A stretch of DNA of 64,000 bases from a virus: the IMG/VR virus record IMGVR_UViG_3300045988_133735, one strand, 5' to 3'. The notes below the pieces were generated by a model. The model did not search any database and was not told the DNA's origin. It worked only from the letters and a program-made list of their open reading frames with translations. Of the stretch, positions 3,373 through 40,336 are shown in pieces (positions within the stretch are counted from its first letter, which is position 1; every line of letters begins with the position of its first letter). The position numbers and the translations under genes were made by a program.

Positions 3373-4014
3373 ATGACTACTGAAACTATGACAATTCATC
3401 GCGGTCTGGCAGAGTTGAAGGTTATTGAAGATCGCATCAACAAGCTTCTTCGTGAAGCTAAGTTTTGTGCACCAGCTAAAAAGAGTATGAAGAAGTTGGA
3501 TGGTGTGGATATCGATGAGTTTAAAACAAATGCTCAGTCCGTTTTCGATAAGATCACTGCACTGATTTCAAAGCAGGCAGCACTTAAGCGAGCGATTTCC
3601 GAATCCAACGCAAAGACTTATGTTACTGTGGCCGGGGTCAATTTTACCGTTGCAATGGCAATTTGGATGAATCAGCATGGCATTGATTTCCAGAGTGCAC
3701 TGCTTAATGTAATCGATCGCCAGTACTCTAATGCCACTGCCGTAATTGAAAATGCAAATGCTCGTCTGAGTGATCGTGCTGACGCTTTTGTGAGCGCTAC
3801 GAATTCCGCTTCAGATAAGAACAACATGGATGCTGAGACTCTGAAGGAAATCCGCCAGGATTACATGGATCGCGAGACTATGGCCCTGGTTGATGGTATC
3901 GATGTTAAGAAGGTAAAGAGCGAACTGGCTGATAAGATCGATAAGTTCAAGGCCGAAGTCGATGCGGCACTGTCTGCTTCTAATGCTGTGACTGAGATCA
4001 CGATTGAATACTAA
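3373..4014 (+). CDS. hypothetical coiled-coil protein
   Basis: ORF track. RBS aAGGAGtaagattATG. No family recognised. Confidence 0.65.
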   Translation: MTTETMTIHRGLAELKVIEDRINKLLREAKFCAPAKKSMKKLDGVDIDEFKTNAQSVFDKITALISKQAALKRAISESNAKTYVTVAGVNFTVAMAIWMNQHGIDFQSALLNVIDRQYSNATAVIENANARLSDRADAFVSATNSASDKNNMDAETLKEIRQDYMDRETMALVDGIDVKKVKSELADKIDKFKAEVDAALSASNAVTEITIEY

Positions 4015-4205
4015 GTTGTAACACCGCAAGGTGTCTACATAGTCATTGTTTATCGAAAACGACAAACCGTAATTGTTCGCTTTTGTTTATAGGGACTTGC
4101 TTAAGCGAAATCAAAATATAAAAAGCTAACACCTATATAAAAGTGGCCTTATAAGCCTTCATGATGAAGAACAAGTTTATATTAGATTATAAATAATACT
4201 TGATT

Positions 4206-4277
4206 TTCTGATTTGCTAAATGGTTAAAGCGACAGACAGAAAATCTGTAATTGTAGGTTCGAATCCTGCATCAGAGA
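4206..4277 (+). tRNA. non-canonical tRNA-like gene (GAA anticodon position, but A at position 33)
   Basis: Acceptor TTCTGAT/ATCAGAG (T1.G72). T arm GTAGG-TTCGAAT-CCTGC. Anticodon arm ACAGA-CAGAAAA-TCTGT, which lacks the near-invariant U33. Confidence 0.45.
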
Positions 4278-4551
4278 ACAAAATCGATCAGTAAGCGGAA
4301 TCAACCCAAGGGAAGATACGAGCTGATCAAATTCATCCGGAAAGGTTAAAGTTTACGATTAAAGGTTAAAGGTTGAAAGTTCAAAGCTTAAACTTCTAGC
4401 TAAAGATTAACGTATAACGAATACAGGTCAAAGAATATTAAAATCCATGAGTTTGTGTTTGTGGATCAATTACGTAAGTCCCGTCGTTTACCACATGGCT
4501 GATAAATGGTGAACGCCTTGGCAGGGGCGTAACAATACCTGCCGTTTATAT

Positions 4552-4630
4552 GGAGCGATAGCTTAAAAAGGGAAAAGTGCTGGTGGCTACGATTCACCAG
4601 AGATGCAGGGTTCGAACCCCACTCGCTTCA
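4552..4630 (+). tRNA. tRNA-Arg-like (anticodon ACG), non-canonical geometry
   Basis: Acceptor GGAGCGA/TCGCTTC. Anticodon arm GGTGG-CTACGAT-TCACC, extendable to 7 bp. T loop TTCGAAC, but only 3 WC pairs in the T stem. The D region is long. Confidence 0.45.
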
Positions 4631-4719
4631 AAATTATGTCTACTATTCCTTGTCCTATGTAGCGGGGAGGTACCCCCTGCGAGAATCATAGTAGTGGCAT
4701 AAAAAGGCAAGGTAAATAT

Positions 4720-4794
4720 GGTTCTGTAGCTCAGTCGGTAGAGCAGCGGATTGAAGCTCCGTGTGCGCCTGTTCAATTCAGGCCGGGACCACCA
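4720..4794 (+). tRNA. tRNA-Phe (anticodon GAA), CCA encoded
   Basis: GGTTCTG-TA-GCTCAGTCGGTAGAGC-A-GCGGA-TTGAAGC-TCCGT...GCCTG-TTCAATT-CAGGC-CGGGACC-A-CCA. Confidence 0.85.
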
Positions 4795-5250
4795 ATGTGC
4801 AAGTTGATTTGATGATTGAGTTTGAGTTCATAATTCCCTCCGATTGATAATGCGTTTTCCGTCTGAGATAAATCCACAGACCCAAATGATGTTATCAATG
4901 AAATTTGCAACAGGATTAGCGAGGCAGTCACACTCCTGATCAGGGGTCGATGTAGCAAGCTTGGTCAAACTGCGTGCCCTGACGATGTAAGATCCGCATT
5001 CCGAGCGCAACTGTGCGTGAGTCTCACCAGCTCGAAAACAGTGAGAGGTGAAGGAATAACACTGAAAAACCTTATGTAGCGCGGCTATAACCCGGGAGAG
5101 GCTTGACCCAAAAGGATGATCGAGTTTGAGAACCGCAGTGGATAAGCATATCGCCAATAGTGCTCTGAAGAGTAACGGTAAATGCCGGACGCCTGACCCG
5201 TTAAAGCCAGGACGAGGACCACAGGTGACATCCCTCTGTGGTCGTTATAT
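4795..5250 (+). ncRNA. candidate structured non-coding RNA (class unknown) between tRNA-Phe and tRNA-Tyr
   Basis: About 455 nt with no credible ORF on the transcribed strand. It has several perfect local stems (for example gaccacag/ctgtggtc and tctcac/gtgaga) and a 16-nt direct repeat, gatgatYgagtttgag, at 4811 and 5115. Confidence 0.25.
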
Positions 5251-5338
5251 AGGTCAGTGTGCTGAATGGTTGAAGGCAGCAGGCTGTAAACCTGTGACAC
5301 CAGAAACGTTGTAGGTTCGAATCCTACCTGACCTACCA
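5251..5338 (+). tRNA. tRNA-Tyr (anticodon GTA), long variable arm, CCA encoded
   Basis: Acceptor AGGTCAG/CTGACCT. Anticodon arm GCAGG-CTGTAAA-CCTGT. Long variable arm. T arm GTAGG-TTCGAAT-CCTAC. Confidence 0.85.
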
Positions 5339-5464
5339 AGTAAGTGATTCTTAAATTGCGCAGAACAAAGGATTAGCCTTTTAGGGGCTGTTACTATTAT
5401 AATGGCAGCCCTGATTATCGGTGATGATGCCAACTCGCGAGGGTGCGTAAGCCGACTTTTATAT

Positions 5465-5540
5465 GCGACTGTAGCCAAGTGGTATGGCATACGACTTTTA
5501 ATCGTAAAATCGTCGAGTTCAATTCTCACCAGTCGCACCA
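5465..5540 (+). tRNA. tRNA-Lys (anticodon TTT), CCA encoded, weak T stem
   Basis: Acceptor GCGACTG/CAGTCGC. Anticodon arm TACGA-CTTTTAA-TCGTA. T loop TTCAATT with only 3 WC pairs in the T stem. Confidence 0.6.
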
Positions 5541-5675
5541 CGCGGTAAGTAGTTTTCGAGTTGCAACTATTGTAGCCAGCATTAGCGCGTACGGCTGATG
5601 TGATGGTATTGTTAGTAGTTCTGCGGAAGGAACAAAAACATAAACCGATGGCGGCTGGAAAGACAGCAATCATAT

Positions 5676-5748
5676 AGGCCCATAGCTTAATTGGTTAAAG
5701 TTGCGGTCTCCAAAACCGTCGATTTCCGTTCGAGTCGGAATGGGCTTG
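5676..5748 (+). tRNA. tRNA-Trp (anticodon CCA)
   Basis: Acceptor AGGCCCA/TGGGCTT. Anticodon arm GCGGT-CTCCAAA-ACCGT. T arm TTCCG-TTCGAGT-CGGAA. Confidence 0.8.
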
Positions 5749-5777
5749 CTACATACAAATGACAAGGAGATGATTCT

Positions 5778-6107
5778 ATGAACGTCGTGAAATTCAAACC
5801 AGAGGACTACGCAAAGAGTTCTTGTTCGACTGAATTCTATAAAGCAGTCGGTTTGTTCGACATCATCAAGGCCGGCGCTGTAACAAACGTTCATCAGATG
5901 AAAATCAATCCGAAGACTTACAAGGAAGTAGATGAGAAGCTGTGCTCAAACTGGAAACGGAATAAAGTCACAAAACGGCTTCGACAAGACAAAGCTCAAT
6001 CGATGATCTCATTTGACTGGATGAATTATTCGCCTGTACAAGATGAAATCGTTCCTGAAAATGAAATCTGGTGGGAGACTGCAAATGAAACAGCAGCAGA
6101 CGTATAA
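5778..6107 (+). CDS. hypothetical protein
   Basis: ORF track. RBS acAAGGAGatgattctATG. Confidence 0.6.
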   Translation: MNVVKFKPEDYAKSSCSTEFYKAVGLFDIIKAGAVTNVHQMKINPKTYKEVDEKLCSNWKRNKVTKRLRQDKAQSMISFDWMNYSPVQDEIVPENEIWWETANETAADV

Positions 6108-7399: not shown

Positions 7400-7630
7400 A
7401 TGAAAACAAGTGATTGGATCTCTGTAAAAACCTTCTTACCACCTAAAGAAGATAAGAAATGGGCTTCGAGTGATGTCGTTTGGGTTTATGACGAAGAATG
7501 TGGACAGCGCAAAGGTTATCTTGATGATGACAACCAGTGGTGTGATGCAAATGAATGCTGGTATTTAAATCATGTTACACATTGGATGCCTCTGCCGGAT
7601 GACCCGCCAAAGGAGAAAAACGAATTATGA
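7400..7630 (+). CDS. DUF551-like phage protein
   Basis: WISVKTFLPP...VTHWMPLPDDPP matches the characteristic DUF551 termini. The stop overlaps the next start (ATGA). Confidence 0.65.
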   Translation: MKTSDWISVKTFLPPKEDKKWASSDVVWVYDEECGQRKGYLDDDNQWCDANECWYLNHVTHWMPLPDDPPKEKNEL

Positions 7631-8379
7631 AAACAACGAAGAAAGATTGGATCTATCGTGTGATTCTTCTGATTCTGTTGGCGATTATCTGGGACATTGG
7701 CGCGGCTTTGACTTCGCCAATTTTTGTTCCCCAGAAAGGCGCTGTGTTTCGTGAATTCTTTCTGCTGATTCAGAACGGAACGATGTTGAAGGCGTTTCGA
7801 TATTCATTGATTCGCATCACAGCAGCAGCTCTTCTGAGTGCCGGTGTCGCAGTTCCACTTGGTTGTCTGATGAAAATCTGTCATCCGATTCAAAACCTGT
7901 TGTATCCGGCGATTCGAGCGATGAGATTCCTACCGGTGACCGCTTTCTATCCACTGCTTACGATGTGGTTCGGAATTGGTGAGAAGATGAAAATCGCCTT
8001 CTTGTTTGTAGCCAGCTTCGTGTTTATGTTGCCAAGTGTATTGATTGCTTTGGATGATGTTTGCGATGACGTGATCGAGGCAGCTAGTATTGACGGGGCA
8101 GGGAAGTTTAACACGGTCACACGAATTATTCTTCCGATGGCAGCACCGTCCATCTGTCAATCCTTTGCTACAATGTACGCCATTGGTTGGACATATATCG
8201 CGGTAGCGGAAACGGTGAATGCAAAGTATGGTATCGGGTATCTGATCTATACTTCGTCTGCTCGTGGTCGCACAACGTTGGTATTTGTTGGAATTCTGGC
8301 GATTGTGATTTTCAGTATTCTATTTGACTGGATTACGAGCGTCTGTATCAAGAAGATTTTTAAGTGGAAATTTTCATAA
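7627..8379 (+). CDS. ABC transporter permease, NitT/TauT (SsuC/TauC-like) family
   Basis: Six hydrophobic segments. EAA-loop signature VIEAASIDGAGKFNTVTRIILPMAAPSI. LLTMWFGIGEKMKI motif typical of SsuC/TauC. Confidence 0.8.
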   Translation: MKTTKKDWIYRVILLILLAIIWDIGAALTSPIFVPQKGAVFREFFLLIQNGTMLKAFRYSLIRITAAALLSAGVAVPLGCLMKICHPIQNLLYPAIRAMRFLPVTAFYPLLTMWFGIGEKMKIAFLFVASFVFMLPSVLIALDDVCDDVIEAASIDGAGKFNTVTRIILPMAAPSICQSFATMYAIGWTYIAVAETVNAKYGIGYLIYTSSARGRTTLVFVGILAIVIFSILFDWITSVCIKKIFKWKFS

Positions 8380-13029: not shown

Positions 13030-13104
13030 TGCGTTGTAGCCAAGCGGTAAAGGCCGGGAGCTTTGACCTCCCTATCGTGTGTTCAACTCACACCAGCGCA
13101 ACCA
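13030..13104 (+). tRNA. tRNA-Gln (anticodon TTG), U1-A72, CCA encoded
   Basis: Acceptor TGCGTTG/CAGCGCA. Anticodon arm GGGAG-CTTTGAC-CTCCC. T arm GTGTG-TTCAACT-CACAC. Confidence 0.8.
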
Positions 13105-39013: not shown

Positions 39014-40336
39014 ATGGGTACAGTCAGAAAAAGAGGCGGCAAGTGGTCATATCGCGTTGACTTCACCGGGACCGATGGGAAACGTGTCCAAAAAGAAAAA
39101 GGCGGGTTTGCGACCAAGAAGGAAGCTAACGCCGCGATGACGGCTATTGAGAACGATCTTTTAAAGACGGGTGAATATATAGAACCTAATCAAAGAATCA
39201 CCATGCAGCAGCTTTTTGAGGAGTTTATAACAGAAGAAGCTCCTGTAACTAGAAAGTACGCAACGATTGTTAGATACAAATCACTCTATCGAAATCAGAT
39301 TGGTCCTGAATTTGGAGTGAATTATCTCTATCAAATATCGACCGATCGAATTCAAAAATTCCTCAATTATAAAATACAAGAAGAAAAAAGCAAAATGTCA
39401 GGACATACAGAGCAGGGACTTAGTGCCTCATATGTACGCAGCCTTTATAATTTTCTTCTCGTGCTTTTCACTTATGCTAGAAAAAAGAAAAAATATATTC
39501 GCAACGATCCCATGGAAGAAGTTGTTCCTCCAAAAGATTATCGCGCTTACGGTAAGGAAATAAGATATTATACACAAGATCAGATTGAATGGATGGATAA
39601 GAGATTTCAATCTACCAACTTATATACGGCTTATCTTCTTGGATTATATCTTGGCGTTCGCGTAGGAGAATGTTTTGCCTTGCGGTTTAGTGATATCGAT
39701 TGGAATAAAAGGACAATCAAAGTTGGAGCACAACTTCAATTCCAAAACAAAGTGTGGAGTCTGGTATATCCTAAAACGCCCAACTCTATACGCGAAGTGA
39801 AGATGAATCAAAAGCTGGTTGACTATCTGAAGAGCCTTCAAAAAAAATATAGTGAAAACAAGGAGTTATTTGGAGGCGGTTGGAAAGGCGAGAATAAGGT
39901 TATGGATCGACGGCCTGAATTTTATGGTAATCCGGGAGTAATGCTAACCGTAGAAGATTTTATCAACGTTAAACCTAACGGTGAAATGTATGTAACCAGT
40001 TCGGATAAAACACTCTCTCGTATATGTAAAAAAGAAGCGGGATTTGATTTCAAATTCCATTATCTGCGTCATACTCATGCAACTATATTGGCAAGTAAAG
40101 GCGTTAATCCTCGATACGTTATGGATCGCTTAGGGCATGGCAAAATTGATGTCACTCTCAAATACTATACGCATGTAACGGACGAGATGCACGACCAAGT
40201 GGCTGCTATTATGGATACCGTTATGGGTGATCAAGAATTGTATGATAAAAATAATATAATTCAAGATGGTACGGATATTTCTCAAATGGCTGTCTTAGAG
40301 GGCACAGAAGACGCCGGTGAAGATAACGAAGAATAA
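39014..40336 (+). CDS. int: tyrosine recombinase / phage integrase
   Basis: N-terminal arm-binding-type domain (MGTVRKRGGKWSYRVDF). Catalytic region ...RVGECFALR...HYLRHTHATILASKG...LGHGKIDVTLKYYTHV (R, HxxR, Y). Confidence 0.85.
   Translation: MGTVRKRGGKWSYRVDFTGTDGKRVQKEKGGFATKKEANAAMTAIENDLLKTGEYIEPNQRITMQQLFEEFITEEAPVTRKYATIVRYKSLYRNQIGPEFGVNYLYQISTDRIQKFLNYKIQEEKSKMSGHTEQGLSASYVRSLYNFLLVLFTYARKKKKYIRNDPMEEVVPPKDYRAYGKEIRYYTQDQIEWMDKRFQSTNLYTAYLLGLYLGVRVGECFALRFSDIDWNKRTIKVGAQLQFQNKVWSLVYPKTPNSIREVKMNQKLVDYLKSLQKKYSENKELFGGGWKGENKVMDRRPEFYGNPGVMLTVEDFINVKPNGEMYVTSSDKTLSRICKKEAGFDFKFHYLRHTHATILASKGVNPRYVMDRLGHGKIDVTLKYYTHVTDEMHDQVAAIMDTVMGDQELYDKNNIIQDGTDISQMAVLEGTEDAGEDNEE

Follow-up and report, generated by a model that had tools for sequence, protein, structure and literature searches.

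Three separable non-coding cassettes, candidate small RNAs, occupy a long gap in the tRNA array of a human-gut phage lineage

Introduction

A 456-nt gap between two tRNA genes of a phage tRNA array (positions 4795-5250) is analysed here; it belongs to a stretch of 64,000 nucleotides from the IMG/VR virus record IMGVR_UViG_3300045988_133735, the whole of which is called the window. Clusters of tRNA genes in phages are commonly interpreted as devices for codon supply or anti-defence, with no attention paid to the DNA that separates the genes. In bacteriophage T4, RNAC and RNAD (species 1 and 2) lie in the tRNA cluster, measure roughly 100-200 nt and are thought to mature with the tRNA precursors. 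GOLLD (RF01998) and ROOL (RF03087) are non-coding RNAs of Bacillota phages and prophages, where they occur near tRNA genes; each is a single RNA of about 550-800 nt. In mitochondrial tRNA punctuation and in MALAT1/mascRNA, tRNAs or tRNA-like structures set the ends of non-tRNA RNAs via RNase P and 3' processing. Northern blots have detected T4 RNAC and RNAD, whose function is still unknown (PMC9697503). Gut phages that have suppressor tRNAs often bear theta ribozymes, which resemble the hepatitis delta virus (HDV) ribozyme, at tRNA 3' ends (Kienbeck et al. 2024, PMC10879173). RNAC/RNAD and the theta ribozymes were the only RNAs inside phage tRNA arrays that we found described in the literature.

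The original prediction, made by a reader of the bare letters, took the gap for a candidate large, stem-rich structured RNA, possibly a member of the GOLLD/ROOL class or an unrelated new RNA. Comparison with related phages indicates that the segment is a concatenation of three independently assorting non-coding cassettes, termed A1, A2 and B, in a one-directional tRNA/spacer operon.

Results

The gap breaks into three cassettes

The elements of the segment and its two flanking tRNAs are as follows.

4720-4794, + strand: tRNA-Phe(GAA) with encoded CCA, called by ARAGORN and by Rfam (tRNA, 64.5 bits); the segment begins after its 3' end
4795-4909, + strand: cassette A1 (115 nt), an optional long hairpin domain, from BLASTN, MAFFT maps and a minimum free energy (MFE) fold
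4910-5042, + strand: core of cassette A2 (133 nt), with 58 distinct homologues at 94% mean column identity, folded with RNAalifold
5043-5046, + strand: A2/B junction 'gaga', in place of which relatives have 'ttatat' plus the next tRNA, 'ttatat' plus cassette C, or 'aa'
5047-5244, + strand: cassette B (about 198 nt), a structured RNA with 37 distinct homologues
5245-5250, + strand: 'ttatat' leader directly 5' of tRNA-Tyr
5251-5338, + strand: tRNA-Tyr(GTA), called by ARAGORN; the segment ends before its 5' end, and tRNA-Lys or tRNA-Trp stands after B in relatives

The predicted limits, with tRNA-Phe ending at 4794 and tRNA-Tyr starting at 5251, were confirmed by ARAGORN and Rfam. ARAGORN placed six + strand tRNAs in 4205-5749 and ten in the whole window. 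The premise that spacers of phage tRNA clusters are usually short is inapplicable to this lineage; the array spacers all measure 88-456 nt, and between 4205 and 5749 non-tRNA sequence amounts to about 1076 nt against about 470 nt of tRNA.

Relatives were retrieved via the flanking gene for a 213-amino-acid (aa) tail-fibre-like protein (PHROG 1491), which yielded 74 IMG/VR contigs of roughly 110-150 kb, and via a DNA pattern, which added 50 human-gut metagenome contigs, for about 120 related contigs in all. When the 456 nt were compared with these by BLASTN, MAFFT maps and block alignment, they broke at fixed points into A1, A2 and B (115, 133 and 198 nt), with clean boundaries in the block alignment. 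In 58 arrays, the spacer after tRNA-Phe was between 126 and 824 nt long; 19 of these arrays, the window included, carried A2 and B, 8 carried A2 alone, 13 carried A2, C and B, 14 carried A2 and C, and 4 carried neither A2 nor B. C thus followed A2 in 27 of the 58 arrays, and B was never present without A2.

Cassette C, which is not in the window, is a tRNA-like element of about 150 nt situated between A2 and B in many relatives. Its first bases are ttatat, after which comes a tRNA-like sequence whose acceptor stem, D arm and T arm are good and whose anticodon arm is aberrant; a GAAA tetraloop replaces the anticodon arm in one C variant and in a further unit, designated L027-type. ARAGORN called C at the 70% threshold only and left the L027-type unit uncalled. 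Such tRNA-like cassettes, between A2 and B or replacing both, are found at the following positions.

L050: 7626-7782
L001: 7657-7813
L028: about 7627-7774
L027: 7382-7597

Among relatives, the final ttatat after B is followed by a Tyr, Lys or Trp tRNA, and arrays lacking A2 or B still contain the same tRNAs.

Because the cassettes assort independently, being present or absent separately and with C between A2 and B in many relatives, a single large RNA domain is incompatible with the data. One ornate RNA of about 455 nt, whether GOLLD/ROOL-like or of a new class, is consequently very improbable in our estimation. Its position beside tRNAs in a phage whose relatives infect Bacillota would suit such an RNA, as would the 16-mer common to A1 and B (described below) and the uninterrupted A1-A2-B order of the window, in which no tRNA-like element intervenes and one 456-nt product is plausible. 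The separate occurrence of the cassettes, with C after A2 in 27 of 58 arrays, argues the other way, together with the lack of any Rfam match, a whole-segment folding z of 0.04, and the lack of supported pairing between cassettes, the sole inter-cassette helix that had been named (tctcac/gtgaga) being unconserved.

The segment shows no protein-coding signal. Open reading frames (ORFs) in or across it span 25-109 aa, mostly with TTG or GTG starts, and several overlap tRNAs; the mechanical ORFs include these.

4828-5157, - strand: ORF of 109 aa
5085-5339, - strand: ORF of 84 aa
5126-5314, + strand: ORF of 62 aa

None of the ORFs in the segment matched Pfam or PHROG. Every frame is broken in relatives by single-base indels at several alignment columns and by the C insertion, and the + strand of B, read off the sequence, has stops in all three frames. 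The prediction that 4795-5250 holds no plausible + strand ORF was borne out. That a small protein is encoded on either strand is hardly credible: mechanical ORFs of 109, 84 and 62 aa do exist, but their TTG starts, tRNA overlap, missing Pfam/PHROG matches and frames broken by indels and by C, with B stopped in all three + strand frames, speak against it.

A2 and B are better conserved than the neighbouring tRNAs

Identities were taken as medians relative to the window, across related arrays.

A2: 95-96% (minimum 88%)
B: 95-97% (minimum 91%)
Spacer sp4 (126 nt): 98%
Spacer sp5 (135 nt): 95%
Spacer sp1 (271 nt): 87%
tRNA-Phe: 84%
tRNA-Tyr: 77-90%
tRNA-Lys: 69-78%
tRNA-Ser: 65%
tRNA-Glu: 92%
Upstream gene (coding sequence): 71%
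sp0, the non-coding stretch before the array: 74%

A2 and B are thus better conserved than the adjacent tRNAs and the flanking coding sequence, and within the array conservation is highest in the non-tRNA cassettes. This high identity could reflect strong constraint or recent exchange among phages, two causes that the data do not fully separate.

Same-anticodon tRNAs at matching positions (L001-L053) were surprisingly divergent, with medians of 65-92%, far more so than the spacers between them. In the relative maps, the other spacers, at 4280-4550 (271 nt), 4632-4719 (88 nt), 5339-5464 (126 nt) and 5541-5675 (135 nt), also behaved as separate blocks.

Cassette B has a covarying fold

The helices of the B model are listed here.

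5047-5050/5060-5063, + strand: H1, G-C to A-U in four sequences
5075-5080/5084-5089, + strand: H2, barely varying
5100-5106/5120-5126, + strand: H3, five pairs varying, almost always wobble-preserving
5161-5164/5171-5174, + strand: H4, in GCTC/GAGT, TCC/GGA and TTCC/GGAA versions, all pairing
5175-5178/5198-5201, + strand: H5, the aacgg/ccgtt helix of the earlier reader, invariant or nearly so
5192-5195/5208-5211, + strand: H6, C-G to U-A in four sequences
5217-5225/5235-5243, + strand: H7, C-G to U-A at two positions

RNAalifold gave 44 pairs for B, 6 of them with two-sided changes. A revised seven-helix model of 38 pairs was then set against two controls, namely 500 shuffles and the same helices with partners slid by 1-3 columns. 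In the model, 99.1% of cells were paired, compared with 95.7% in shuffles; two-sided changes occurred in 60 cells, compared with 20.4 +/- 4.1 in shuffles (0/500 reached the observed value); and the covariation score was 0.152, compared with 0.085 in shuffles (0/500) and at most 0.048 with slid partners. Compensatory changes were located in four of the seven helices (H1, H4, H6 and H7). The alignment hence indicates that B has a conserved secondary structure backed by compensatory changes. G-U pairs are invariant or frequent in H1, H2, H3, H4 and H7, and because of these many G-U pairs the fold is specific to the + strand.

Helices H5 and H6 cross in the model and form a possible pseudoknot, which stays a proposal because H5 is invariant though H6 covaries. 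Of the helices named originally, gaccacag/ctgtggtc (5217-5224/5236-5243) proved real, its pairing being kept through the C-G to U-A changes, but it stands 7 nt away from tRNA-Tyr instead of directly abutting it; aacgg/ccgtt is present as H5, and as it never varies it offers no covariation to read. Targets of the invariant B segments, sought within the window, were at chance level. The 88-nt spacer (4632-4719) and the 5' part of B have a 28-nt motif in common (TATGTAGCG...GAG, 71%).

Folds of A1 and A2 and the repeated 16-mer

The folds proposed for A1 and A2 are plausible as models, support for that of A2 being weak. In A1, an outer stem (4798-4805/4902-4909) is followed by a second stem (4809-4816/4891-4898); both recur in MFE folds of the window, L008 and L030 forms, and their positions vary by G/A or C/U only, which is wobble-compatible. 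A1 is conserved at its first 30 nt and last 30 nt or so, most relatives have unrelated sequence in place of its apical 60 nt or so, and 'short' arrays lack the cassette altogether. For A2, RNAalifold proposed a four-way junction with a closing stem (4913-4921/4995-5002), a hairpin at about 4922-4937, a long arm (4940-4945/4977-4982 and 4951-4955/4970-4974) and a further hairpin (4984-4986/4992-4994), after which come two 3' hairpins (5005-5009/5014-5018, then 5019-5022/5030-5033). In this model 99.0% of cells are paired, and the remaining changes, one pair apart (see below), are one-sided and wobble. By eye, the hairpin at about 4922-4937 is built from AGG/CCT, AGCC/GGCT or AGC/GCT in three variants, a reading that depends on the placement of a one-base gap, and the A2 loop ACUG may alternatively pair with a downstream CAGU, with which the L027-type paralogue is also compatible.

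The MFE of the whole segment was -122.8 kcal/mol, compared with -123.0 kcal/mol for shuffled sequence (z = 0.04), and the cassettes gave z values of +1.84 for A2, -0.60 for B and -2.4 for the A1 hairpin in its window form. The description 'stem-rich' consequently fails by energy for the segment as a whole, which is not above chance, the A1 hairpin alone reaching -2.4. Three more of the helices originally named lie in A2 or at its edge. The hairpin cgca-actg-tgcg (5006-5017) is conserved, with wobble-preserving changes only; tctcac/gtgaga has its 3' arm across the A2/B junction, where relatives have ttatat or aatgaa instead; and the palindrome cctgatcagg is not kept, its 3' half (4940-4945) pairing with 4977-4982. 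Inverted repeats between cassettes were short only and were judged consistent with chance, and no conserved long-range pairing between cassettes was supported.

The 16-nt direct repeat reported originally (GATGATYGAGTTTGAG) is exactly where it was placed, and occurs nowhere else in the 64 kb without mismatch.

4811-4826, + strand: copy 1 (GATGATTGAGTTTGAG), the 5' strand of the second A1 stem, degenerate in relatives (GATRATTGARTTTGRG)
5115-5130, + strand: copy 2 (GATGATCGAGTTTGAG), containing the 3' strand of H3 and kept in essentially all B copies

The 16-mer looks like a paralogous hairpin motif because it serves as a stem strand in both A1 and B, the B copy being conserved and the A1 copy degenerate.

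That A2 and B are decayed or highly derived tRNA genes whose cloverleaf has been lost is improbable, though several features would fit. The same slot in relatives holds tRNA-like elements (C and the L027-type) with aberrant anticodon arms and GAAA tetraloops; immediately downstream of the L027-type element stands GCGTA-ACTA-TACGC, a covarying counterpart of the A2 3' hairpin GCGCA-ACTG-TGCGT; A2 can be drawn as a four-way junction; 4950-4972 of A2 is D-arm-like by eye; and 5174-5188 of B matches the tRNA-Gln D-loop region at 13 of 15 positions. Opposed to this, the cloverleaf test of 4795-5250 gave no match to the Rfam tRNA model at E<=10 and found neither T-loop nor acceptor stem, and ARAGORN detected no extra tRNA in the segment at 80-85% thresholds or with introns allowed. 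At 70%, its single call in the segment (5162-5262) ran into tRNA-Tyr and was one among six extra, evidently spurious calls. The A2 covariance model misses the tRNA-like units, and the conservation of A2 and B above real tRNAs is the opposite of decay. Decayed tRNA genes were thus not recognised in the segment in the window, though tRNA-like pseudo-elements fill the same slot in relatives.

The cassettes match no known family and are confined to one lineage

Rfam 15 at gathering thresholds identified only tRNAs in the whole window. At E<=10, a search of 4000-5800 (1.8 kb) returned nothing within 4795-5250, and one of 4780-5265 (486 nt) returned a single 15-bit chance match to a plant-virus pseudoknot and nothing else. 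The suggested membership in the GOLLD/ROOL class therefore found no Rfam match at gathering thresholds and no credible one at E<=10, nor was ROOL, GOLLD, HEARO, tmRNA or RNase P recognised in the region. GOLLD, ROOL, HEARO, tmRNA, RNase P, 6S and T-box are ruled out as far as Rfam covariance models reach, and tmRNA was likewise absent by ARAGORN (window and 4000-5800) and Rfam. Theta ribozymes were sought with a scanner of our own, built on the published motif layout (P1/P2/P3/L3/P1.1/J4-2) with one mismatch allowed in P1 and in P2; the motif was a nested double pseudoknot at a tRNA 3' end, with a P1 starting with G at the cleavage site, a 3-bp P3, an L3 with U and the P1.1 dinucleotide, and a catalytic C opening J4/2. 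No theta or minimal HDV-like ribozyme was matched on either strand of the 64 kb, a published theta sequence being recovered as a control.

The segment had no match among GenBank phages (INPHARED BLAST, near and distant modes). IMG/VR was scanned with the A2 and B cores, in exact or degenerate form, and yielded the same lineage only, in contigs already known via the flanking gene, and the cores gave 0 matches in GTDB genomes, where a prophage copy was sought. Covariance models of A2 and B detected no paralogues elsewhere in the window and no homologues in more distant relatives, whose arrays also have inter-tRNA gaps of 230-440 nt. A2 and B are therefore narrow families, and all three cassettes are lineage-specific and match no known RNA family. 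What survives of the alternative originally offered, an unrelated new structured RNA, is that the sequence is non-coding, conserved and of no known family, with covariation backing the structure of B; the notion of one large domain does not survive.

The phage itself is about 145 kb, comes from human gut and encodes DnaB, a PolIII-alpha-type polymerase, NrdD and an integrase (39014-40336). Among cultured phages, its polymerase comes closest to those of Clostridioides difficile phages (38% identity) and Bacillus phages (34%), so that its host is probably a member of the Bacillota. One A2/B-bearing locus (L173) lies in VOFB01000498.1, a metagenome contig of 574,840 bp, which far exceeds the phage genomes of about 145 kb; the locus may have integrated into a host chromosome, or the contig may be a misassembly.

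Processing signals and the favoured reading

The sequence (t)tatat stands directly before most tRNAs of the phage, including the isolated tRNA-Gln at 13030. In related loci, 'tatat' occurs within 7 nt upstream of 146 of 437 tRNAs, compared with 0.5% of background windows, an enrichment of about 65-fold, and each cassette ends in ttatat in relatives. Bacterial RNase P prefers leaders with U at -1 and A at -4, both of which the UUAUAU before tRNA-Tyr provides. The segment is non-coding and located inside a co-oriented tRNA cluster, as are stable RNAs of the RNAC/RNAD kind.

On balance we lean towards reading A1, A2 and B as small RNAs specific to this lineage that are transcribed and processed together with the tRNAs. 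The segment would be transcribed along with the tRNAs; its 5' end would arise from 3' maturation of tRNA-Phe, and the 3' end of B from RNase P cleavage at 5250/5251, after the UUAUAU leader, where the H7 hairpin, 7 nt from the cut, could shield the end of B. In relatives bearing C, the same tRNA-processing enzymes would separate A from B, and in the window, where the junction is only 'gaga', one product of about 456 nt would be expected unless another nuclease cuts. The products may then be small stable RNAs that act in trans, in the manner of T4 RNAC/RNAD.

Several observations weigh against this reading. Stability and action in trans are properties that we infer. The elements are restricted to one phage lineage by the IMG/VR, metagenome, GTDB and covariance-model searches. 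Folding energies of A2, B and the whole segment are no better than those of shuffled sequence, and in A2 a single pair (4944/4978, G-C to U-G in 13 sequences) has a two-sided change. In B, 7 pairs have any two-sided change, compared with 5.1 in shuffles, a number reached in 44 of 500 and so not above shuffles; the mean column identity of 94% means low diversity, and for several of the compensatory changes the origin may be a single event, or one swapped hairpin passed on to many sequences. Finally, 29% of unpaired and 34% of paired B columns vary, which fits recent recombinational spread as well as constraint.

The account that gains from these points, which we hold to be rather unlikely but to be taken seriously, makes the cassettes either cis-acting leaders, trailers or insulators that aid tRNA folding and processing, or passengers recently spread by recombination at ttatat/tRNA junctions, their identity reflecting recent exchange. 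Besides confinement to one lineage, the missing thermodynamic signal and unpaired B positions as invariant as paired ones, it can draw on the presence/absence mosaic with clean junctions and on the high similarity of all internal array spacers (sp4 98%, sp5 95%). Neutral passengers, however, would not be expected to show three H4 sequences and two-sided changes in H1, H6 and H7 that all keep pairing; a conserved structure of 200 nt far exceeds the needs of a leader; and the cassettes are not needed for tRNA processing, because arrays without A2 or B carry the same tRNAs.

The reading as co-processed small RNAs can be extended, as a possibility that we regard as doubtful, to the whole 'tRNA array', which would be a production line for non-coding RNA. 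The tRNAs and anticodon-less tRNA-shaped elements would act as punctuation releasing trans-acting RNAs (B, A2 and other spacers), which would be under stronger constraint than the tRNAs and might serve, for example, as decoys or regulators of host translation, RNA turnover or tRNA-directed defence.

Other features of the array

The first array element (4205-4279; ARAGORN tRNA-Phe gaa; slot at about 6800-6905 in L001-L074) keeps its acceptor, D and T arms, and its anticodon loop is hypervariable; orthologues are read by ARAGORN as Phe(gaa), Tyr(ata), Tyr(gta), His(atg), Gly(gcc), Ser(tga) or Leu(taa), and some have 6-nt loops without an assignable anticodon. The element may be a tRNA-like processing signal or a fast-evolving decoder. 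At the tRNA-Trp(CCA) slot (5676-5749), many relatives instead carry a tRNA of related backbone with a CUA anticodon (amber suppressor), which suggests that TAG recoding may differ between close relatives of the phage. The slot has these positions in relatives.

L008: 8041-8117
L048: 7695-7772
L029: 7889-7964

A consensus scan of 3900-5900 for promoters and terminators gave a number of sites not above shuffled sequence; one promoter-like site inside A1 (4822-4851) did not stand out from the scan. The 271-nt spacer contains a run of short direct repeats, variants of aaaggttaaag (4338-4400), and 4338-4700 is the sole stretch of the array that matches GenBank phage DNA (MT835544, 93%). Upstream of the array, after the tail-fibre-like gene, 4042-4137 gave a sub-threshold Rfam match to RAGATH-27 (30 bits, gathering 76; E 0.14), which is probably due to chance.

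Discussion

In the array described here, non-tRNA cassettes outsize the tRNAs, are shuffled as units and are better conserved, and one of them has a supported fold. Should they be stable trans-acting RNAs, they would constitute new RNA families for gut phages and would revive the question of what RNAs of the RNAC/RNAD type are for, in a system with natural presence/absence variants. If they are only spacers, they caution against taking long gaps in tRNA arrays for ornate RNAs.

The cassettes resemble theta ribozymes in being small non-coding elements directly 3' of tRNAs in human-gut tailed phages; a further likeness is that CUA suppressor tRNAs, present in many theta-bearing phages, are also found in relatives of this phage. 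The cassettes differ in that the motif is absent from both strands of the 64 kb, and in that the tRNA-Phe gene encodes its CCA, as theta-associated tRNAs rarely do. With GOLLD and ROOL they share a non-coding nature and a place next to tRNAs in a phage with Bacillota-infecting relatives, but the gap consists of three units, of 115, 133 and 198 nt, that can be separated, and has no Rfam match. Transcripts punctuated by tRNAs find a parallel in the anticodon-less tRNA-like elements between cassettes in relatives, the precedents being eukaryotic or organellar and the present case known from sequence alone. T4 RNAC and RNAD are, like the cassettes, non-tRNA RNAs within a phage tRNA operon, a likeness of position; in contrast to them, the cassettes of this lineage are mobile within the array, account for more bases than the tRNAs and are better conserved than the tRNAs among which they lie.

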